Positions 8,008-62,605 of a stretch of DNA of 64,000 nt are shown here, one piece after another. This DNA comes from Pirellulales bacterium. GTDB lineage: Bacteria; Planctomycetota; Planctomycetia; Pirellulales; PALSA-1355. The stretch spans positions 1,088,001-1,152,000 of the forward strand of contig CAVTBU010000005.1 in the NCBI GenBank assembly GCA_963733035.1, read 5' to 3'. Each line of letters opens with the position of its first letter. The first letter of the stretch is position 1. The notes under the pieces are model-generated. The model searched no databases. It was not told the DNA's origin and saw only the letters and a list, made by a program, of their open reading frames with translations. Both the position numbers and the translations under genes were made by a program.

Positions 8008-9030
8008 ATGAATCGGAAAACAACTTGGAATGCGCTTGTCGCATTCGTCGCAGTCGCTGCACTAGCGCTGCATACGCGCCTCGCCTCGGCGGCGACGGTG
8101 TCAAGCGGAGTCAGTTTGAATACGGGCAACTTTAGTACGACCATTTCAGGCACTGGTTCCGCAACAGTCACCGGCGGCGGTGGAAATTACCGCCAATGGG
8201 CTTCTCTTGGTTTTCTCGGATGGCAGAGCACCAACATTGGTGTTTCGTTATCGAATCAGACCGTTGGCATCCACATGAGCAATGTGAACGTCAACGCGCC
8301 GGCCAGCGGCTCGGCAAACCTCACGTTCGATGACAACACGCCGCCCACGCCTATCTCGTTGGACTCGCTCGACGCGGACCTCAACGGTGCCGGTGGCAGC
8401 AACCAGAACTACAACTTCTCGATCGGCATCGATCCGATCAGCATTTCGGTTGCTGGTATCCTCAGCACCAGCATCGCGCTCACGGTTAATGGCACCATCA
8501 CCGACGCCGTGTTCCACTCGACCGGTGGTTCTGCCCCGGGCGCTGTCTATTCGATTCCTGGCAACCTGGACCTCACTTTGCAGGGCTCGGTTACGGGCGT
8601 CCTCGATCCGGGTGGACTCAACATTAACCTGGGCACGATCTACACGCTGGCCCCGACCACGCTTTCAACGGCCGTGGCGCTTCCTGGCCTGATGGTCTTG
8701 ACGGACCTGTCTGGTGGGGCGGGCCCGTTCCCGGCGGACATGGCGGTCGACCTTGGTGCGGCAATTCCGTTTCCAATCTCGGTACCCTTGTCGCTTCCGG
8801 TTGAAACGCACCAGAATTTCAGCCTCGGCACGCACCAGAGTGGCTTTACGCATCTGGACATCAATGCGGGTTCGGCGATCAATGCCACCTTTTCGTTCGG
8901 TAATCCGAGCTACGATCTGCAGGGCGTGATCCCCAGCGTCGTTGTACCCGAACCGGGCACGCTGGCGATGGGCTCGATGGCCTTGGTGGCCTTGTCGATT
9001 TTTAGTTTTCGCCGTCGCAAGTCGGCCTAA
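8008..9030 (+). CDS. PEP-CTERM sorting-domain surface protein (340 aa)
   Basis: AAGGAG RBS; signal peptide ending ASA-A; C-terminal VPEPGTLAMGSMALVALSIFSFRRRKSA. Confidence 0.92.
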   Translation: MNRKTTWNALVAFVAVAALALHTRLASAATVSSGVSLNTGNFSTTISGTGSATVTGGGGNYRQWASLGFLGWQSTNIGVSLSNQTVGIHMSNVNVNAPASGSANLTFDDNTPPTPISLDSLDADLNGAGGSNQNYNFSIGIDPISISVAGILSTSIALTVNGTITDAVFHSTGGSAPGAVYSIPGNLDLTLQGSVTGVLDPGGLNINLGTIYTLAPTTLSTAVALPGLMVLTDLSGGAGPFPADMAVDLGAAIPFPISVPLSLPVETHQNFSLGTHQSGFTHLDINAGSAINATFSFGNPSYDLQGVIPSVVVPEPGTLAMGSMALVALSIFSFRRRKSA

Positions 9031-9062: not shown

Positions 9063-9103
9063 AACTGACGCCGGTGTCGCCTGACGCCGGCGTCAGTTTT
9101 TTT
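9063..9103 (+). terminator. Rho-independent terminator
   Basis: AACTGACGCCGGTGTC-GCCT-GACGCCGGCGTCAGTT followed by a T run. Confidence 0.85.
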
Positions 9104-9235
9104 AGCGACTGGCCCAGCCGATCACCATTCCGCCGTCGGGTCTCATGCGCAACGGCGGTTATAATTACGACTTTCCGCGCAGGCAGGCTCTCCGCCGCGA
9201 ACACATTGCTTTCGCAGCCACTCACCGAACGTACG

Positions 9236-11550
9236 ATGGCCAATTCACAGCCGGATTTAAGCACGATCCGCGAGCGAAGCATTCAGCGCATGAGCGGGGG
9301 CCTACCTGGCCTCGGCCTGCTGTTGCTCGCCGTCATCGTCTACTGGCCAACGCTCCAAAACGGCTATGTATCGGATGATAGCGGCTACGTCGTGAGCAAC
9401 TTCTCGCTGCGTTCCGCGCAGGGCCTCTACGATCTCTGGTTTACGATTGGCACGGTTCAACAGTACTATCCGCTCGTGTTCTCGATGTTTTGGGGAGAGT
9501 ATCACCTCTGGGGGCTCGACCCGACGGGCTATCACGCGGTGAACATGCTGCTGCATGCAACGGCGGCGATTCTGCTGTGGCGCGTGCTGGTGCGCATCGA
9601 AGTGCCAGGGGCCTGGCTTGCCGCGGCGATCTTTGTCGTGCATCCGGTAGAAGTCGAGAGTGTCGCTTGGATCAGCGAACGTAAGAATGTCCTGTCTTGC
9701 GCGCTGGCGCTGGCGGCGATGCTGGCGTACTGGCGTTTTGCGCCGCCGGAATTGGCGACCGAGCCGGGCGGGCCCCATCGAAGTGCACGCGCTTGGCGCT
9801 TCTACCTGCTTGCGCTGCTGCTGTTCGTCGGCGCGCTGCTCAGCAAGACCGTTACGGCCAGCATGCCGGCCGTGCTGCTGGTGATCGTGTGGTGGAAACG
9901 GGGACGCGTGACTTGGGGTGACGTCGGGCCGCTGGTGCCGTTTTTCAGCGTTGGCATCGGTCTGGGCATCCTGACCGTCTGGATGGAAAAGGTCTATGTG
10001 GGGGCGCAGGGAGATCGCTTTCAATTCACGATCGTCGACCGGCTGCTGATCGCCGGTCGGGCCGTCTGGTTCTATGCGGGCAAATTGGCCTGGCCGTATC
10101 CCTTGATGTTCTTCTATCCACGCTGGACGATCGATCCGCACGTTTGGTGGCAATACCTCTTTCCGATCGCGGCGGCCGCCTTGCTGGTTACCTTGTGGCT
10201 TGCCCGGAAGCGAATCGGGCGAGGCCCGCTGGCGGCCGCGTTGATTTTCGGCGGTGTGTTGGTGCCGGCCATTGGATTCTTTGACGTCTTTCCGTTTCGA
10301 TTTTCATTCGTCGCCGACCACTATCAATACCATGCCAGTATCGCGCTGATTACCCTGGCGACCGCGACACTGACGACGGCGGTAACGAAAATTGCAGGCC
10401 ACACAAGATGGGCTCTGCCGATCGTGGCCGCGGCAATACTCATTCCGTTGACGATCCTCGCCCACCAAAAAACGCACGTCTATTGGGACGACTTCACACT
10501 GCACTCGGACGTGGCGCGGTTGTATCCAGATTCCTGGGTCGCGCACAACAATATCGCCGGAATCTACCTGAACGAAAAGAAGTACCCAGAGGCGATCGAG
10601 TCGCTACGGCGCACCATCCGACTCATTCCGAACGACCCCGTGCCCCACGGCAACCTTGGCCGGGTATTGACCGAGTTGGGAGACTACGACCAGGCCCGGG
10701 CCGAGCTCGACACGGCCATGAAGTTGCACGTCGACAAGGACGAAAAGGCCTGGATCCTACGGCTCATCGGTGAACTGCAACTCAAGCAAGATCAAACCGA
10801 TGAAGCGCTCGATAGTTTCAATACGTCCATCGAGCTGCATCTCGACTGGACCGCGGTGATGCAGCGCGGACGCATCCGGGCCATGCGCGGCGATGTCTCG
10901 GCGCGCTCGACGATCTGGACCTGGCGTTACGTCTGCAACCCGATAGCTTCGAGGCTCGCGAACTGAGGGCAAAGGTATACGCGAGCACGGGCGAGTTCGA
11001 CAAGGCACTTGCCGACTTGCGGGAGTTACAACGCCAACTGCCGGATAGTGCAAACGTGCAACTGCAAACGGCGGGCGTGCAACAGGCCGCCGGGCATCCG
11101 AAAGAGGCGCTCGCGGCCTACGAGCGGGCAATCTCGCTTGATCCTGGGATGGTCGCGGCCTACCTCGGCCGTGGCGATTTGTACCTCGCGCTTGGACAGC
11201 GAGCAAAAGCAGCCGGCGACTACCGTAGCGCATTACAGTTGACGCCCGAGGACGTCGCCGCGCTGAACAATCTCGCCTGGATCCTGTCGACGTCGCCCGA
11301 GGCCGAATTGCGTGACGGCCGGCGAGCCGTGGAATTGGCCGCCGCCGCGTGCCGGGCCACCGAGCACCGCCGGGCCGAATTGTTGGGCACGCTGGCTGCC
11401 GCCCATGCCGAGGCAGGCGATTTCTCGGCTGCCGTGGAATGGGCGCAAAAGGCAATCCAGACGGCTGAGCCGCCGCTTAAGGAAGAGCTCGAGGACCAAC
11501 TTCAGGCCTACCAAATGCGGCGTCCCTGGCGCGATGTTCCGGCCCCCTAA
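9236..11550 (+). CDS. TMTC-like GT-C membrane protein with C-terminal TPRs (putative protein O-glycosyltransferase); frameshift at ~10901
   Basis: GYVSDD loop motif, YHAVNMLLH, HPVEVESVAWISERKNVL, many TM helices, ADHYQY, then TPRs continuing in ORF 11017..11550 (ALNNLAWILST..RDGRRAVELA). Confidence 0.8.
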
Positions 11551-11614: not shown

Positions 11615-11642
11615 TTGACATTGGTTTGTGCCGGCTTAAAAT
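11615..11642 (+). promoter_or_regulatory. Putative sigma70 promoter
   Basis: TTGACA-16 bp-TAAAAT. Confidence 0.55.
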
Positions 11643-11749: not shown

Positions 11750-14700
11750 ATGACGTTGAAAAAAACGATTTACTCCGCCACAAACGAGATGTGCGGAGTG
11801 ATAAACGCATCGTCGTGGCGGAAAGGCACTCGATTCTTCACTGCCGCCGGAACTTGCCTGGCAGTTGCCTTCACGTTGCAGACAAGTCTACCGCAGGTCC
11901 AGGCCCAGACATTCACAAACGCCACCGCGGCGGCCGGCATCAACCACACGCAATTCGAAACGCCGCCGCTGTTCTATCAGTTCTCCGAACAACGGATTCA
12001 AACCGGAGGCGTGGCAGCCCGCGACTACGACGGCGACGGCTACGTCGATTTGTATTTCACGCGGATGGATGCGCCTGACCTGTTGTACCACAACCAGGGA
12101 AACGGCACGTTCTCGGTGGTCGATCCAAGCGTCACCGGCATCAACCGCGGCATTGGCTCGAACGGCGCGGCCTGGGGCGACATCAACAACGACGGCAAGG
12201 CCGATTTGTACGTCACGACGGTCGACGACACGCGCAACTACCTGTACGTCAACAACGGTAACGGCACGTTTACCGAGCAAGCAGTTGCGCGCGGCGTCGA
12301 CGTATCGGGCAAGGGCGCCGCCTTCAGCCCCACGTTTGGCGACTACGATGGCGACGGCTACCTCGACATGTTCACCACCTCCTGGCTCGACGTGACGGGC
12401 AAGGGTACGCGGCTGTTTCACAACCAAGGCGCCGCGCACCCGGGCTTCTACACCGACGTGACCGTGGCGGCTGGCGTCGACATGTCGCAGCAAACGAGCT
12501 ACCAGGGCGTGACCAACGCCACGTTTGCGTTCTCGCCCCGGTTCACGGATTTGGATCACGACGGCCACGTCGACCTGGCGGTGACCGGCGACTTCAACAC
12601 CAGCCGTTTGTACTGGAATAACGGCGACGGCACGTTCACCGACGGCACCAACGCGGCCGGCGTGGGCATCGACAACAACGGCATGGGCTCGGCCGTGGGC
12701 GATTTCAACGGCGATGGCCAGCTCGACTGGTTCGTCTCATCGATCTACGACGACAACATTCCGAACAACGCCGGCTGGAAGGGGAACGGCAGCCAGCTTT
12801 ACATCAACAACGGCGACCGCACGTTCGACGCCACCGCCATGGACACGTACTGGGGCTGGGGCAGCACCGGCTTCGACTACGACAACGACGGTCAACTCGA
12901 TCTGGCCGTGACCAACGGCTTCGACGCTCCCGATGAAATCACCACGATCGAGAACAAATTCAATCACAACCCCACGTTGCTCTATCACAACGACAATGGC
13001 ACGCTGACCGACGTGGCCACGGCCGAAGGTGTGACCGACATGGACTCGGGCAAGGGGCTGTTGGTTCTCGACTACGATAACGACGGCAAAATGGACATGA
13101 TTGTCGTCAACAACGAAGGCGCCCCGATCCTCTATCACAATGACTCGACCACGCTCAACGACTGGATCGGATTCGATACCGTGGGAACCGTCTCGAACGC
13201 GGACGGATTCGGCGCGTGGATCACGGTGGTGGAAAACGGAGTCTCGCAGGTATTCGAAGTCAGCGCCGGCAGCAACTACCTGGGACAAAACGACAAGCGA
13301 GCTCATTTCGGCCTGGGCGCCGGCGACGGCATTCTCGATTCGGTATCGATCGCCTGGCCCAGCGGAATCAGCCAGACGTTTACCAACGTGCCGGAGAACC
13401 AATACTATGTGCTGAACGAATCAACCGGTTTGGGTCCCTTCGTCACCACTCCCGAACCTTCGACGGTGGCGCTGGCGATCTTGGCCGCGTTCTGTATCGG
13501 GTGTTGTCGCTCGGCCGGTCGTAAGGCCTTGCGGACGAAACGACAAATCGCGCTGTTGGTTTGCATCATCGGCGGCTCGGGCGCCGTTGCGCGCGGCGAT
13601 GTGATTACCGACTGGAACGGGGTGTGGGCTCAAACGATTCGTGAAACCGCGACGACGCATGGCGTGAATGCCGGGCCAGGACCGGTGGCGCGCGCCAACG
13701 CCATGATGTTCGGGTCGATCTACGACGCAATCAATTCGATTGACAACACGCACCAGCCCTATTTGGTCAATTACAACGTCCCGTCGGATACCAGCCGTGA
13801 AGCGGCCGCCGCCAGCGCCGCCTACCGCATCATGTCGTCGATTTACGGCAGCGGCGCGACGCAGCAGGCCCGATTCGACAATCAACTGGCGAGCAATCTG
13901 GCAAACATTCCGGATTCTCCTGGCAAAACCGCCGGCATTGCGTTGGGCACGGCCGTGGCCGATGCCATGATTGCCGCCCGGACCAACGACGGCTCGGGCG
14001 TATCGAGCACCTACACGCTCAATCCAGACGCCGGATATTGGCGTCCGGCCTTTGGGCAAGAACCGATTGTTCCGTCGTGGGGCAGCGTCACGCCGTTCAC
14101 GATGACCTCTGGCACGCAGTTTCGTCCCGGTCCTCCGGGCGGCTATAGCGACATGCCGTCGCTGCTGGCCAGCCCCGAGTATGCCGCGCAGGTTGCCGCC
14201 GTGCGCGAGCTGGGAGCGCTGGACAGCACCACCCGCACGGCCGATCAAACCGAGATCGCCGAGTTTTGGGCGAACGACAACCCGGGAACGTTCAAGCCGA
14301 TTGGCCAACTCGACCAATGGACCCAAGTCGTGGCCACGAGCCAGGGGCTTTCGCTCAGCGACGAAGCGCGGCTGTTTGCACTGAGCAGCCTGGCGATGGC
14401 CGACGCTTCGATCGTATCGTGGGATATCAAGTACGATACGAACATCGACCTCTGGCGGCCGCGCGACGCGATTCGCGAGGTGGTCGACGACGGCAATTCG
14501 CTGACCGTTGCGGACCCGACCTGGCAGCCGTTGGCGCTGATTGTCGACGGCAACCCGGCGCCGGCGTTTCCGTCGTACGTCTCGGGGCACGCGGTCTTCG
14601 CCTCCACGCAGGCGGCGATTCTCACCTCGTTTTTCGGCACCGACGACATTTCCTTCAGCCTGACCTCGGACACCTCCACGGCGACTCGCTCGTTTGATAG

Positions 14701-14932
14701 TTTTTCGCAAGCCGCGCTGGAAGACGCTTCGAGCCGCGTCTTTCTGGGGGTGCATTTCCCCTGGGATGCCGACGCCGCGTTGCCGTCCGGAACGGCGCTA
14801 GGGCAATACGTTTCCGACAACTTCTTGCTGCCGGTCGCGGTCGTGCCGGAACCATCATCCATCGTGATGGGAATCCTGGGTGCAATGGCACTGGGAATCT
14901 TAGGATGGCGGAAGACTCGTCGAACCGGGTAG
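11750..14932 (+). CDS. CRTAC1/ASPIC-UnbV FG-GAP protein + internal PEP-CTERM fused to a vanadium-dependent haloperoxidase/PAP2 domain + terminal PEP-CTERM
   Basis: Seven D-x-(D/N)-x-DG-x-x-D repeats; ASPIC motif SAGSNYLGQNDKRAHFGLG..WPSG; PEPST-TM at 13451; haloperoxidase motifs KY..WRP, PAFPSYVSGH, SRVFLGVHF; terminal VPEPSS-TM-RKTRR. Confidence 0.85.
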   Translation: MTLKKTIYSATNEMCGVINASSWRKGTRFFTAAGTCLAVAFTLQTSLPQVQAQTFTNATAAAGINHTQFETPPLFYQFSEQRIQTGGVAARDYDGDGYVDLYFTRMDAPDLLYHNQGNGTFSVVDPSVTGINRGIGSNGAAWGDINNDGKADLYVTTVDDTRNYLYVNNGNGTFTEQAVARGVDVSGKGAAFSPTFGDYDGDGYLDMFTTSWLDVTGKGTRLFHNQGAAHPGFYTDVTVAAGVDMSQQTSYQGVTNATFAFSPRFTDLDHDGHVDLAVTGDFNTSRLYWNNGDGTFTDGTNAAGVGIDNNGMGSAVGDFNGDGQLDWFVSSIYDDNIPNNAGWKGNGSQLYINNGDRTFDATAMDTYWGWGSTGFDYDNDGQLDLAVTNGFDAPDEITTIENKFNHNPTLLYHNDNGTLTDVATAEGVTDMDSGKGLLVLDYDNDGKMDMIVVNNEGAPILYHNDSTTLNDWIGFDTVGTVSNADGFGAWITVVENGVSQVFEVSAGSNYLGQNDKRAHFGLGAGDGILDSVSIAWPSGISQTFTNVPENQYYVLNESTGLGPFVTTPEPSTVALAILAAFCIGCCRSAGRKALRTKRQIALLVCIIGGSGAVARGDVITDWNGVWAQTIRETATTHGVNAGPGPVARANAMMFGSIYDAINSIDNTHQPYLVNYNVPSDTSREAAAASAAYRIMSSIYGSGATQQARFDNQLASNLANIPDSPGKTAGIALGTAVADAMIAARTNDGSGVSSTYTLNPDAGYWRPAFGQEPIVPSWGSVTPFTMTSGTQFRPGPPGGYSDMPSLLASPEYAAQVAAVRELGALDSTTRTADQTEIAEFWANDNPGTFKPIGQLDQWTQVVATSQGLSLSDEARLFALSSLAMADASIVSWDIKYDTNIDLWRPRDAIREVVDDGNSLTVADPTWQPLALIVDGNPAPAFPSYVSGHAVFASTQAAILTSFFGTDDISFSLTSDTSTATRSFDSFSQAALEDASSRVFLGVHFPWDADAALPSGTALGQYVSDNFLLPVAVVPEPSSIVMGILGAMALGILGWRKTRRTG

Positions 14933-15129: not shown

Positions 15130-16239
15130 ATGAGACGTTTTCGTTTGGTCCTTGGCTTCACGCTCTGCTGGGTCGGCGCGGCGACTGCGGTCAGCGCGGC
15201 CGCACCCCGCGCCACGGAGAACGTTATTTTGCTCATGACCGATGGCCTGCGCTGGCAAGAGGTCTTTACCGGCGCCGAGGAATCGCTGATGACCAAAGAG
15301 CCGGGCGGCGTGAAGGACGTCGACGGTTTGAAAGCCGAATTCTGGCGCGAGACGCCCCAGGAGCGCCGCACGGCGTTGCTGCCGTTTCTGTGGGGCACGG
15401 TTGCCAAACAGGGCCAGATCTTCGGCAACCGCGAAAAAGGGAGCTACGCACAAGTCACCAACGGCATGCATTTTTCTTACCCCGGCTACAACGAAACGCT
15501 GTGTGGCTTTGCCGACCCACGGATCGACTCGAACGACAAGGTGCCGAATCCCAACGTCACGGTGTTCGAGTGGCTCAATCGCCAGGCAAAGTATCACGGC
15601 GCGGTGGCCGCTTTCGGCGTCTGGGATTGTTTCCCTTACATCTTCAACCGCGACCGCTGCGGCTTCTTGATCAATGCCGGCTTCGAACCCCTGCCCGGCG
15701 GCGACCGGAACCCGCGCATCGCCTTGCTCAACGAACTGAAAACCGGCACCACGGCGTACTTTGGCGCTGAACCGTTTGATTCGTTCGAGATTCAATCGGC
15801 GATCGAATACCTCAAGGACAAGCAGCCTCGCGTTTTCTTCCTCTCGCTCAATGAAACCGACGCCTGGGGTCACGCGGGCCGCTACGATCTGTATCTCAAG
15901 TCCGCGCATGCGGCCGACGCGTGCCTCAAGCAGATCTGGGACACGGTGCAGGCGCTCCCGCAATATCGCGGCAAGACGTCGATTCTGATGACCGTTGATC
16001 ACGGGCGCGGCGACGCGCCTGTGGATTGGAAGAGCCACGGCGAAAAGATCGCCAAGAGCGAATACATCTGGCTGGCTGCCATCGGACCCGACACGCCGGC
16101 AATGGGCGAACGCGCGGACTCGACGCCGATCACGCAAAGCCAGGTCGCCGCCACGGTGGCTGCTTTGTTGGGCGAAGACTTTTGCGCCGCGGTTCCGCAA
16201 GCGGCCGGGCCGATCGCCGACGTGTTGCCCAAAAACTAA
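15130..16239 (+). CDS. Secreted alkaline-phosphatase-superfamily protein
   Basis: Signal peptide; LMTDGLRWQEVF, FSYPGYNE, ETDAWGH, TVDHGRG metal-binding motifs. Confidence 0.8.
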   Translation: MRRFRLVLGFTLCWVGAATAVSAAAPRATENVILLMTDGLRWQEVFTGAEESLMTKEPGGVKDVDGLKAEFWRETPQERRTALLPFLWGTVAKQGQIFGNREKGSYAQVTNGMHFSYPGYNETLCGFADPRIDSNDKVPNPNVTVFEWLNRQAKYHGAVAAFGVWDCFPYIFNRDRCGFLINAGFEPLPGGDRNPRIALLNELKTGTTAYFGAEPFDSFEIQSAIEYLKDKQPRVFFLSLNETDAWGHAGRYDLYLKSAHAADACLKQIWDTVQALPQYRGKTSILMTVDHGRGDAPVDWKSHGEKIAKSEYIWLAAIGPDTPAMGERADSTPITQSQVAATVAALLGEDFCAAVPQAAGPIADVLPKN

Positions 16240-16291
16240 TCTCGGTCACGGGTCGACGACCCTGCCGACGCTGGCAAAAGGATCCCACTCG

Positions 16292-19190
16292 ATGCACGCT
16301 ACCCTGTTGTGCCTGGCAATTGTGCTGGCCGCCGAGGCAAACGACGCTCCGCTTGAAATTCCCCAGGTGGTTGACCCGCGATTGCGAATCGAACTTTTCG
16401 CGGCCGAGCCCGAGATTGTCACGCCGTGCGGCATTACGGTCGACGCCCAGGGACGCGTGCTGGTTGTCGAGAGCCATACGCACTTTCGCCCCGAAGATTA
16501 TGTGGGGCCGCCGGCGGACCGGATTCAAATGTTTGCCGACACCGATGGCGACGGACATGCGGACCGCATCACGACGTTTCACGAGGGGACGCGTTACACG
16601 ATGAACGCAGGCGTGCATCCTGATGGCTCGGTGTACGTTGCCACGCGGATGAAAATCTTTCGCCTCCGCGATACCGACGGCGATGGTCGGGCCGACGAGA
16701 ACACGCCGATCGCGCACTTGGAAACCAAGGGTGATTATCCGCACAACGGACTGTCCGGATTCGCTTTCGACTTTGCCGGCAACGTGTATTTCGGGCTGGG
16801 CGAAAACCTGGGGGCCAGGTTCAAACTCATCGGCACCGATGGTTCGCTCGTCAGCGACCTCGAGGGAGGGCAGATCTATCGCTGTCAGGCCGATGGGAAA
16901 AAGATCGAGCGCGTGGCATTTGGCTTCTGGAATCCGTTCCACTTGGCATTCGACGCGTTTGGCCGCTTGTTCGCCGTGGACAACGATCCCGACTCGATGC
17001 CTCCTTGTCGGCTGATGCACATTGTCGACGGCGGAAACTACGGCTATCGCTATCGGAACGGGCGGAAAGGAGTGCATCCCTTCACCGCCTGGAACGGCGA
17101 ACTGCCCGGCACGCTGCCGATGGTGGCCGGCACCGGCGAGGCGCCCTCTGGCGTTTTGGCGTACGAGTCAGATCAACTACCGGAAGATTATGTCGGCAAT
17201 TTACTGGTCACCAGCTGGGGCGACCATCGCATCGAGCGTTATCGCCTCGAGCCGCGGGGCGAGCTTTCAGGCCGTGACCGAGCCCATCGTCAAAGGCAAC
17301 GAGAACTTTCGGCCGGTTGGCATCGCGGTCGCCCCCGATGGTTCGCTTTTCGTCAGCGATTGGGTGCTGAAAGACTACAACGTGCACGGCAAGGGACGCC
17401 TTTGGCACATCACCGCGGCTGCTTCCCAAACGCGGACTCGACCAACAGAACCCGACGAGGCGATTCATTCAAAGGATCGGCAAGTGCGAGAGGCCGCGGC
17501 ACGCACGCTGGCGGGCAGTGACGAAGGTCGCGCCAGGCTGGCCAGGCTGGCCAAGGACGACGAATCGCCTCGAGTCCGTTCGCTATCGCTGGCGGCATTG
17601 CAGTCCGTGGGAGAAACGGACGCCGTGGTTGCGGCCGCCGCGAGCGATTCCTCGGTCGATGTCCGGTCGGCGGCAGTCCGCTATTTGGGTAACACGGCCG
17701 GCTGCTCCGCAAACCTGAAGCAACAACCGTCGCCAGAGGTTCGCGCGGAGGTGATGCGGCATTGCTTGGATCCCGCCGTGAAGGAGACGCTGTGGCAAGC
17801 GGTTGCGGATCCTGATGCGTTCGTGGCCCAGGCGGCGCGGCAGGGGCTGACGGAACTGCATGCCGTTGACGCGAACATTGATTTGGACGAACTTTCGGCC
17901 CCACAGCGTCTGGCGGCGCTGCTTATCCTGCGCGAAGCAAACGTACCCGGTGGAACGCGGTTGCTGCCGCGGCTGCTTCGCGATCCGAACGTGGACGTGC
18001 GTTTTGCCGCCGTGCAATGGGTGGGAGAGGAACGTCTGACGGAGTTTCGCGAGCCGCTCGTGGAAGCCCTTTCCGCAGGACCGGCCACCGCGCGTTTGTT
18101 TGGGGGTTACCTGTCGGCGCTCGAACGCCTGGAAGGGGTTAGCCGCATCCCATCGAACGAGTGGAGCGGGGAACAATACATCGTTCTTGCGCTTGAGGAC
18201 CCCGCGACCAGCCCCGAAGCACGACGCTGGGCGCTGCGAATGTTGCGACCCGACCATCCCCTGCTCACCGTTGACCGTTTGCGGCAGTACCTGACAGGCG
18301 AAGACGAAGCCTTGCAATTGGAAGCCGTCCGTTCGCTGCGCGACTCCCGACTTGCGGAGCGGGATACACTTTTGGCGGAAGTCGCCGGGTCAGACGCGTA
18401 CTCGCCGCGGCTCAGAGCGGAAGCAATTGTCGGACTGGCGCCAAATTCGGATTCGACGAAAAAACTTCTCGTACAGTTGGCCGGCGGCAACAATCGTTCC
18501 TTGCGCAATGAAGCTCTCCGCTCGCTTCGGGGGGCCGAACTCGATGCGGGGGATGTCGGGCAGCTAAAGGCGCTTGCCAGCAACGATGCGTCATTGGCCG
18601 AAATGGTTACCCGCGTGCTGGAACCGAAGAACAATAGCCTGGCGCCGTCGAACACCAATGTCGACGCCTGGGTGAGCCTGCTAGACGGCAGCGGCGACCC
18701 CGAGGCGGGCGAGCGAATTTTCTTTCATCGCCAGGCCGCGGCCTGCGCGCGTTGTCACCAAATTGAAGGTCGGGGTGCCAAGGTGGGTCCGGAGTTGACG
18801 GCAACCGCACGCACACTCGACGAACGGCGGCTCGTCGAGTCGATCGTCCAGCCAAGCAAGGAAATTGCCCCGCAGTTCGTCTCTTGGCTGGTGGTAACCA
18901 AGTCGGGCCAGCCGCTGACCGGCGTGTTGGTTCACGAGGAAGCGACGGGCGAACAAACCTACGCGGATCAGCAGGGAAAGCTGACGGTACTCACGCCCGA
19001 TGAAATCGAGTCGCGTCGACCGCAAGCCACGTCGCTGATGCCCGACGGCCTGCCGGGGCAGATGACCGTACAGGAATTCCGCGACCTCTTGGCGTTTCTG
19101 CGAGGTCCCGGTGCATCGACCGCCGCGTCCGCAACATCGGCGCCGGCAACTCCCGCCGGACTGGGAAACGCGAGTAACAGTGGCAATTGA
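16292..19190 (+). CDS. PVC-type heme-binding CxxCH protein (propeller + HEAT + cytochrome c); frameshift at ~17258
   Basis: ELFAAEPEIVTP, DTDGDGxAD, GFWNPF, FRPVGIAVAPDGSLFVSDW, HEAT repeats, CARCH, SLMPDGL..DLLAFL. Confidence 0.85.
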
Positions 19191-62023: not shown

Positions 62024-62605
62024 TTACCGGCTTTTCCGTTTTCGGAGCCAATGCATGGCCGCGGCACAGCCGGCCAGCGCCAACAGCAGCCCACTGGCAG
62101 GTTCGGGGACCGGCGAGACGGTGAAATTCACGCTCAAGTCGGGTGTGGAGGGAGAGGAGAGCAAAACCGCCGTCGTCGGATAGGCCGCGGTGCTGACAGC
62201 GATGACCTCGTTGCTGTGCACGAAATCGTTCACGTAGAAATCGTCAGTGTTCTGAGCGACGCTCGTAACCGTATTTGCAGTCGAACCAACGATGATCTGA
62301 TAGAGCGAGCCATCGTTGTAGACGACGTAGAAACCGGTGTTGGACAAGTCCTGCGTCGTCGCACCCAGCGGGTTGGGCGAAAGGCTGAACGCGGTGAGCG
62401 ATCCTTCCACGTGCTCAAGGCCGACGCCGCTTATCGTGTCGTCGCTGTATGTGAACGCGGCAGTTCCAGTGAACGGCTCGTTGGTATAACCCTGGCCGTT
62501 GAGCGTCACCGACCAGGAACCAGTGACGTTGAACATGCTGGCTTGCGCGTTGCCGACGAGGCCGGCGGTGGCAATGAGGGACACTAAGCAGCTGCGATAC
62601 AACAT
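62024..62605 (-). CDS. PEP-CTERM sorting-domain protein (193 aa)
   Basis: Signal peptide ending AQA-S; VPEPASGLLLALAGCAAAMHWLRKRKSR. Confidence 0.88.
   Translation of the reverse strand: MLYRSCLVSLIATAGLVGNAQASMFNVTGSWSVTLNGQGYTNEPFTGTAAFTYSDDTISGVGLEHVEGSLTAFSLSPNPLGATTQDLSNTGFYVVYNDGSLYQIIVGSTANTVTSVAQNTDDFYVNDFVHSNEVIAVSTAAYPTTAVLLSSPSTPDLSVNFTVSPVPEPASGLLLALAGCAAAMHWLRKRKSR

Follow-up and report, generated by a model that had tools for sequence, protein, structure and literature searches.

The stretch analysed here (hereafter the window) comprises 64,000 nucleotides of the genome (G000) of a soil planctomycete, a Pirellulales bacterium, and at positions 11750-14932 of its forward strand holds one uninterrupted open reading frame (ORF) of 1060 codons plus stop, whose product, P0001, reads as two exosortase substrates joined in a single chain. 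The ORF list and its translation give the order as a signal peptide, a CRTAC1-like propeller, a PEP-CTERM-like tag, a second signal peptide, a haloperoxidase/PAP2-like domain and a terminal PEP-CTERM tag; an initial annotation had proposed this anatomy, and the ORF, the Pfam domains and our reading of the junction bear it out. We regard the locus as a genuine in-frame fusion of two cargo genes, encoding a CRTAC1-like propeller and a vanadium-haloperoxidase/PAP2-like protein, whose product is likely processed to two proteins, and put the probability of this reading at roughly 0.6. The fused frame itself is genuine, as confirmed on two independent lines, sequencing reads and other assemblies; the cutting of the chain by signal peptidase and exosortase is plausible from features of the sequence.

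The junction begins with an internal PEP-CTERM-like tag at residues 566-586 (13445-13507, + strand), which consists of TTPEP (with TPEP starting at 13448) and 17 uncharged residues. Taken alone, this tag scores under the Pfam cut-off of 20.7 bits (13.0 bits in the N half, 16.6 bits in a 53-residue piece), and it was therefore identified by homology: the terminal tags of four shorter proteins, P0006-P0009, align with it, and in three fused orthologues (P0002, P0004 and P0005) TIGR02595 finds its best stretch at the internal tag, above the 16-bit cut-off. A PEP motif (TPEP), a hydrophobic helix of at least about 14 residues (17 uncharged residues here) and a basic cluster (RSAGRK...) are all present. 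An extreme C-terminal position is seen for the terminal tag but not for the internal one, whose PEP motif is followed by a further 493 residues. Next comes the basic loop RSAGRKALRTKRQ (residues 587-599, 13508-13546), with six Lys/Arg and no Asp/Glu, and the proposal that it serves both as the tail of tag 1 and as the n-region of signal peptide 2 is supported. The region also holds an out-of-frame TAA at 13522-13524, starting at the third base of codon 591, and, four nucleotides downstream, an in-frame TTG (codon 594, 13529-13531) that aligns with the start codon of stand-alone orthologues of the second half and is a possible internal start.

The h- and c-region of the second signal peptide, IALLVCIIGGSGAVARG, occupies residues 600-616 (13547-13597), with Ala at -3 and Gly at -1, and was assigned by inspection and homology. 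Inspection of the whole element found six Lys/Arg, 15 uncharged residues and Asp at +1 (ARG followed by D), so that the n-region, the h-region and the small -3/-1 residues looked for in a signal peptidase I substrate are all recognizable by eye. The N-terminal signal peptides of the stand-alone enzymes P0024-P0027 are homologous to this internal one, and translation from TTG 13529 would give MRTKRQIALLVCIIGGSGAVARG followed by D, similar in length and shape to theirs. The mature part would start with Asp617 of DVITDWN, at 13598; the positions first given for the TAA (13522), the TTG (13529) and this mature start all check. In an AlphaFold full-length model, two short low-confidence helices lie between the two confident domains, one at 570-587 in the internal tag and one at 596-610 in the region of the second signal peptide.

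To examine the frame itself, contigs of four public short-read runs (X1-X4) were aligned to positions 12900-14100. Record 7 of X2 (230 nucleotides) covers 13377-13606 with no gaps and two substitutions, a synonymous C>T at 13528 and a G>C at 13572 that gives Gly608Ala, and record 3 of X1 is identical over 13378-13528. Record 13 of X4 comes from a strain with 23 differences and spans 12900-13521 without gaps, leaving 13522-13572 uncovered, and X3 yielded short, dissimilar pieces only. No inserted or missing letters are listed in any of the four runs over 12900-14100. The initial annotation had warned that the fusion might be an indel artefact, with TAA 13522 in frame in reality, and had held that the idea should fall if no homologs shared the architecture. 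The gapless contigs across the junction do not bear out the former, and the latter fails on the fused proteins P0002-P0005. Since the read contigs are gapless and the fusion recurs in four other assemblies with a different linker in each (as found by a junction search and in an ORF of genome G007), the artefact is largely refuted.

The junction search used residues 480-700 of P0001 as query and returned 23 proteins at E<=0.001 among 4930 candidates. Five of these, 1039-1077 residues long, span the whole junction, namely P0001 and P0002-P0005; the latter four (sources ena, ncbi+ena, jgi and lgn) cover 100% of the query at 62-71% identity. P0003 corresponds to an ORF of G007, a genome of a different genus (L002 1360..4644, 1094 codons), and is 78% identical overall. 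Conserved in P0002-P0005 and in G007, the layout goes beyond a chance occurrence. Among 401 genomes sampled from the order, ten have a match to the junction query at E<=1e-15; this match extends across the junction in G000 and G007 only and is confined to the second half in the other eight. The notion that the fusion is unique to the source organism was rejected in view of P0002-P0005, further fusions shared with G007 and the matches to a junction profile described below.

Relatives in which the two halves are separate proteins were also found. P0006-P0009 are 589-605 residues long, are 74-76% identical to the first 596 residues of P0001 and end soon after the basic cluster of the tag. A search of shorter proteins with the C half matched 1036 of the 8000 candidates scored; among the best 120, which were listed, the five best are P0024-P0028, with 463-472 residues and 62-77% identity. 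P0024-P0027 (67-77% identical) open with ordinary signal peptides ending in ARA or ARG before D(V/T)I; P0028 begins with V and is seemingly cut short. Overall, the split propellers and enzymes are 62-83% identical to the halves of P0001 and share their tags and signal peptide. P0009 and P0024 each come from a single reported Logan contig, 6130 nucleotides long in both cases; from this equal length their genes are probably neighbours. A scan of metagenome contigs with the N-half alignment gave seven loci, none of them a close relative, and no split-pair DNA was obtained; a scan of genome contigs found the G007 contig as the only close relative. No PAP2 gene lies downstream of the propellers in G016 and G033, and no 590-residue propeller gene lies upstream of the enzyme genes in G003 and G039. 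As the distant homologues of each half are unpaired, the combination of a CRTAC1-like propeller and a haloperoxidase-like enzyme is specific to one small clade, and its constancy there hints that the two proteins may act together.

Maximum-likelihood trees were built for the N halves (12 rows: five fused, four split and the outgroups G016, G033 and P0010, leaving out P0011-P0023) and for the C halves (15 rows: five fused, five split and the outgroups P0029-P0032 and P0034, leaving out the other listed matches). In each tree the fused and split forms fall into one clade with 100/100 support and are interleaved within it. Fused P0003 is sister to split P0009 in the N tree (100/99) and to split P0024 in the C tree (98/96), the fused P0004 and P0005 are sisters (100/99), and fused P0002 groups with split P0006 (87/87). 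Interleaving on both trees implies at least three changes between the fused and the split state. The ancestral layout as two genes, with an in-frame fusion of two formerly adjacent genes for exosortase cargo, is well supported, and the split proteins P0006-P0009 and P0024-P0027 uphold the initial description of two exosortase substrates in one ORF and give it an origin in two cargo genes.

Traces of such an origin can be sought in the nucleotides of the junction. Only five off-frame TAA triplets occur in the 3183-nucleotide ORF, and the one at 13522 is among them; the G007 junction has TAATG, an off-frame TAA overlapping an in-frame ATG. Both are likely remnants of a stop and a start codon that overlapped or lay close together. 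Through a small frame change in its unconstrained tail, gene 1 would have missed its stop, of which TAA 13522 would be the relic, and its frame would then have run into that of gene 2 at the gene 2 start, TTG 13529. In keeping with repeated changes of state, the five fused proteins have linkers of differing length, 47-57 residues from PEP to the cleavage site, which are 30-58% identical vs 70-88% for the domains. In all five, the first transmembrane segment has 16-19 uncharged residues, the loop is 11-21 residues long with 5-10 Lys/Arg and no Asp/Glu, the second h-region has 13-19 residues, the -3/-1 residues are A/A or A/G and the +1 residue is D. The signal features of both tag 1 and signal peptide 2 are kept while the linker sequence drifts.

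The two passengers are well-defined domains. Export of the first would begin at an N-terminal signal peptide, which by inspection comprises residues 1-52 (11750-11905) and ends in VQA before QTF; the split orthologues, when aligned with it, show no variation at A52-Q53-T54-F55, and a helix at 24-45 of the predicted model falls in this region. The CRTAC1-like beta-propeller follows at residues 53-565 (11906-13444), with seven FG-GAP repeats and an ASPIC/UnbV domain, as judged from Pfam, the Protein Data Bank (PDB) and the model. Run on whole P0001, Pfam gave FG-GAP_3 (PF13517) in six stretches (E 2.7e-44), FG-GAP (PF01839) in seven and UnbV_ASPIC (PF07593) at residues 486-553 (E 7.7e-18), and this order of FG-GAP repeats followed by ASPIC/UnbV is that of the CRTAC1 family. 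Among solved chains, cartilage acidic protein 1 (PDB 9ETN) is nearest (E 5.6e-14), and the blocks of the model that cover the propeller have a predicted local distance difference test score (pLDDT) of mostly 80-96. In the same Pfam run PEP-CTERM matched in two stretches, PAP2 at residues 903-1017, and VCPO_N and VCPO_2nd weakly.

The vanadium-haloperoxidase/PAP2-like helical domain spans residues 617-1030 (13598-14839). PDB 4CIT is its best solved match (E 1.9e-23), and in that alignment the K...RP, SGH and R...H motifs coincide; Pfam gave 27.4 bits for PAP2 vs a cut-off of 27.2, and 19.6 bits for VCPO_2nd, under its cut-off of 27. K278, R287, P288, S329, G330, H331, R380 and H386 are invariant in an alignment of 31 sequences. 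We take K-x(n)-RP, SGH and SR-x5-H to be the active-site motifs of the vanadium haloperoxidase/PAP2 superfamily, and these are present in the enzyme domain, which would be either a haloperoxidase or a phosphatase. The chain closes with the terminal PEP-CTERM tag VVPEPSSIVMGILGAMALGILGWRKTRRTG (VVPEPSS...WRKTRRTG; residues 1031-1060, 14840-14929), which scores 21.1 bits with PF07589 vs the cut-off of 20.7 and 19.1 bits with TIGR02595 vs 16. The full-length model has a mean pLDDT of 83.8 and a predicted template modelling score (pTM) of 0.56; it shows no fixed packing of propeller against enzyme, and an interface is neither supported nor excluded by it.

The genome encodes what processing of such a chain would require. 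PF07589 has 60 matches at E<=0.001 among 150 scored candidates in G000, which also has two exosortase genes (PF09721, at 215 and 195 bits) and encodes signal peptidase I. In the model that we propose, the N-terminal signal peptide would send the propeller through Sec, the internal PEP-CTERM helix would act as a stop-transfer segment, and the 13-residue basic loop would remain in the cytoplasm; the second hydrophobic segment would then re-start export, so that the enzyme domain is exported as well and the end of the chain is anchored by the terminal PEP-CTERM helix. Signal peptidase I would cut between ARG and D, and exosortase would act at both PEP motifs. To our knowledge, exosortase processing of PEP-CTERM tags is itself still thinly tested. 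The mature products would be the same two proteins that the relatives make from two genes, possibly at the 1:1 stoichiometry proposed in the initial annotation, and cleavage of this kind would explain why the two layouts interchange easily. The fusion may be tolerated because tag 1 and signal peptide 2 would together form a topologically correct helical hairpin.

The same layout recurs elsewhere in G000. A regular expression (regex) for PEP, 15 uncharged residues and at least two Lys/Arg, applied to frames of at least 100 residues, found 100 motifs, 91 of them within 45 residues of the stop and nine further away; four of these nine, the window locus and three others, are followed by more than 180 residues. 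At G000:C7:481799-483952 (+ strand, L037), two NHL-repeat PEP-CTERM paralogues share one frame and the internal tag passes Pfam; the junction, ...FRCRR, loop, MPSRIPRSLIALTIL...AQA before EYQF, contains an in-frame Met, and the fusion recurs in G007 with another linker (L041). The 483-codon frame at G000:C8:498120-499568 (+ strand, L038) joins two unrelated small PEP-CTERM proteins, again with an internal tag that passes Pfam; the pair is 78% identical and fused in G007 (L043), and its halves occur as separate proteins in G016 and G004. At G000:C4:24013-25677 (- strand, L039), RRRRR leads directly from one FGE/SUMF1-like PEP-CTERM protein into the signal peptide of its paralogue; the second copy reads as frameshifted, either as a real pseudogene or through an assembly indel. 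Of the 20 pairs of neighbouring tags on the same strand of G000, the regex places two in a shared frame; it overlooks the C7 pair, whose second tag it does not match.

A wider view came from a 64-position junction profile, built from seven junctions of four junction families in G000 and G007 only and searched against 1.84 billion cluster representatives. At E<=0.001 it matched 1025 protein clusters, of which 38 reach E<=1e-10 and one E<=1e-30; because the profile selects for junctions, these figures show the spread of the layout and not its frequency among all tagged proteins. The best 150 of the 1025 clusters all have at least two matched stretches, one of them 11, and include the C7 protein of G000 itself (P0146). 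According to the regex, an internal tag lies more than 80 residues from the end in 147 of the 150, and in 107 a basic-plus-hydrophobic run begins no more than 70 residues after such a tag. Internal units number one in 95 proteins, two in 34, three in 11, four in four, five in two and nine in one (P0145), with none in three. The halves of the 95 two-unit proteins are paralogous in 21 and unrelated in 60, as they are in P0001; the other 14 were too short to test. The 214 junctions of these clusters have a median loop of 12 residues with six Lys/Arg and no Asp/Glu, a positive charge that is partly built into the regex filter. A Met stands in the loop of only 68 of them, so that re-initiation at ATG cannot be the general route. 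P0145 (2500 residues) is the most extreme polyprotein among these clusters, with nine regex-defined internal units and 11 profile stretches; each unit reads VPEPST..LLGLGLVGL..RRRR and passes directly into a hydrophobic run and a small-x-small site.

The window locus is one member of a widespread layout and not a singular case. The statement in the initial annotation that the PEP-CTERM tag normally has a strictly C-terminal position is true of most proteins, but the junction profile matches 1025 clusters, and internal tags are present in 147 of the best 150. A large class of multi-unit PEP-CTERM precursors seems to follow the logic of the processing model. A more general proposal, which we hold tentatively and at slightly less than even odds, is that exosortase bacteria make secretory polyproteins of two to about ten modules, each with a signal peptide, a passenger and a tag, which would be stitched through Sec and cut by signal peptidase I and exosortase, with fused and split layouts functionally interchangeable, as the repeated switching among close relatives would show. 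The basic tail of each tag would then double as n-region for the signal peptide that follows it, and the window locus would be the simplest form.

Several observations weigh against the proposal of a genuine, processed fusion at this locus. The internal tag of P0001 is the weakest of its family: its motif is TPEP, its helix is rich in Cys, no more than RSAGRK precedes the TTG, and it scores 13-16.6 bits. The depth of the read contigs is only 2-2.4, and X1 and X2 may belong to the assembly's own study. Frequent toggling between the two states could mean that the fusions are young and mildly harmful rather than equivalent to the split genes. Gene 2 could be translated alone, as TTG 13529 is in frame and aligned with the start codons of P0024-P0027. 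Finally, Haft et al. (2006; PMC1569441) place 87% of PEP-CTERM tags fewer than 10 residues from the end and say of the long-tailed ones that they 'may represent non-functional examples'.

Four alternatives were ranked by weight: an uncut chain, a start at the TTG, an indel artefact and a decaying fusion. The first accepts the fusion as real and leaves the chain uncut, giving a three-helix inner-membrane protein with two periplasmic domains, in which the hairpin serves as an anchor only. We consider this unlikely. In its favour, the positive loop and the two hydrophobic helices make a self-consistent topology, the P0001 internal tag is under the Pfam cut-off, and cleavage is a prediction from sequence. 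Weighing against it are the small -3/-1 residues, the Asp at +1 and the PEP motif, which are kept in five of five fused proteins while the linker drifts to 30-58% identity; moreover, the split relatives make two separate proteins, and confident packing of the domains is absent from the model (pTM 0.56).

A somewhat smaller chance is given to a real fusion in which the second protein comes mainly from the internal start and the read-through chain is a tolerated by-product. Internal initiation at TTG 13529 is possible, and besides the alignment of this codon with the starts of P0024-P0027, an in-frame ATG is kept at the G007 junction and P0002 has a Met in the equivalent position. Translation of gene 1 encounters no stop, though, so the full chain would be made anyway; P0004 and P0005 are without a Met there, and so are all but 68 of the 214 junctions in the best 150 clusters, where GTG and TTG starts are not judgeable from protein. 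A scan for the sigma-70 consensus, a weak test, found no promoter-like site near the junction.

It is very improbable that an assembly or sequencing indel conceals two ordinary genes separated by an in-frame TAA 13522. The spacing of only four nucleotides between TAA and TTG would suit this explanation, as would the broken look of other frames (at 10966/11017, in the tail of 15995-17521 and in the second copy at G000:C4); against it stand three short-read contigs without gaps over 13451-13521, one of which continues to 13606, and the four other fused assemblies, G007 included, each with a linker of its own. Least probable of all is a recent, decaying accident, a fused pseudogene without a working product, which would fit the toggling of states on the tree and the degenerate tag 1 of P0001 but is at odds with two intact domains, catalytic motif residues invariant in 31 sequences, a confident model (mean pLDDT 83.8), fused sisters P0004 and P0005 that keep 83-88% domain identity and a diverged but feature-preserving linker, and two other fusions (C7 and C8) common to two genera.

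Other features of the window were recorded alongside. A sigma-70-like match, TTGACA-16-TAAAAT (11/12, + strand), lies at 11615-11642, 108 nucleotides upstream of the ATG of the fused ORF; it is a consensus match only, one being found vs 0.9 expected in shuffles. Upstream, a membrane protein with a tetratricopeptide repeat (TPR) region is apparently split into ORFs of 630 and 177 residues in different frames (9074-10966 and 11017-11550, + strand). Relatives of the 177-residue piece are the ends of open frames of 504-563 residues in G007, G003 and G001, and the split is possibly a frameshift, real or from assembly. Downstream, the ORF at 15995-17521 (+ strand) has a DUF7133/GSDH-like match that ends near residue 440; its last ~70 residues are Arg-rich and look out of frame, and its first 80 codons overlap a metalloenzyme/phosphodiesterase-like ORF at 15130-16239. 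Ordinary PEP-CTERM tags are present at 8944-9018 (+ strand; G000:C5:1096944-1097018), where the tag closes a gene ending just upstream of the TPR gene, and at 62039-62113 (- strand; G000:C5:1150039-1150113).

PEP-CTERM tags have been treated as strictly C-terminal in the founding paper and in annotation models. If internal tags with a signal peptide after them are processed, exosortase would need no free C-terminal tail, and polyproteins processed by signal peptidase would be far wider in bacteria than the few textbook cases suggest. Gene callers and models that demand a terminal tag would then under-count cargo and misread genes of this kind as frameshifts. The window locus offers a good test case: its two passengers are unrelated and fold well, orthologues exist in split form for comparison, the junction is confirmed, and the candidate internal start is open to mutation. 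No literature on internal or tandem PEP-CTERM tags was found in a search that covered few subscription journals, and the internal-tag layout is, as far as we found, an undescribed variant of exosortase cargo.

Signal peptidase also cuts at internal signal peptides in the Bradyrhizobium FbcH cytochrome b/c1 precursor and in flavivirus polyproteins, which resemble P0001 in that one chain is threaded through the membrane by means of an internal signal sequence. We know of no sortase-type tag upstream of the internal signal in FbcH or the flavivirus polyproteins. Nearer to the sorting side is MXAN_5598 of Myxococcus xanthus, in which a tripartite sorting tag that is normally C-terminal, MYXO-CTERM, likewise sits mid-protein; the authors of the myxosortase report (mBio 2025, PMC11980579) raise a possible fusion of two genes, propose that the N-terminal part is still processed and cite work showing that C-terminal sorting tags function mid-protein. 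That case differs in its tag and enzyme (myxosortase, with an invariant Cys), and it is a single example, treated in the discussion of that report, for which processing is a proposal as well. The Zobellia vanadium-dependent iodoperoxidase (PDB 4CIT) and human CRTAC1 (PDB 9ETN) share the folds of the two P0001 passengers, but are free-standing and without PEP-CTERM tags. Canonical cargo of the PEP-CTERM/exosortase (EpsH, Xrt) system has the same unit plan as both units of P0001, that is, a signal peptide, a passenger, a PEP motif, a helix and a basic cluster; P0001 departs from it in that its first tag lies 493 residues from the chain end, with a second signal peptide following in the same frame. 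The split pair P0006-P0009 and P0024-P0028 comprises the same two proteins as P0001, but encoded by two genes with a stop between them.

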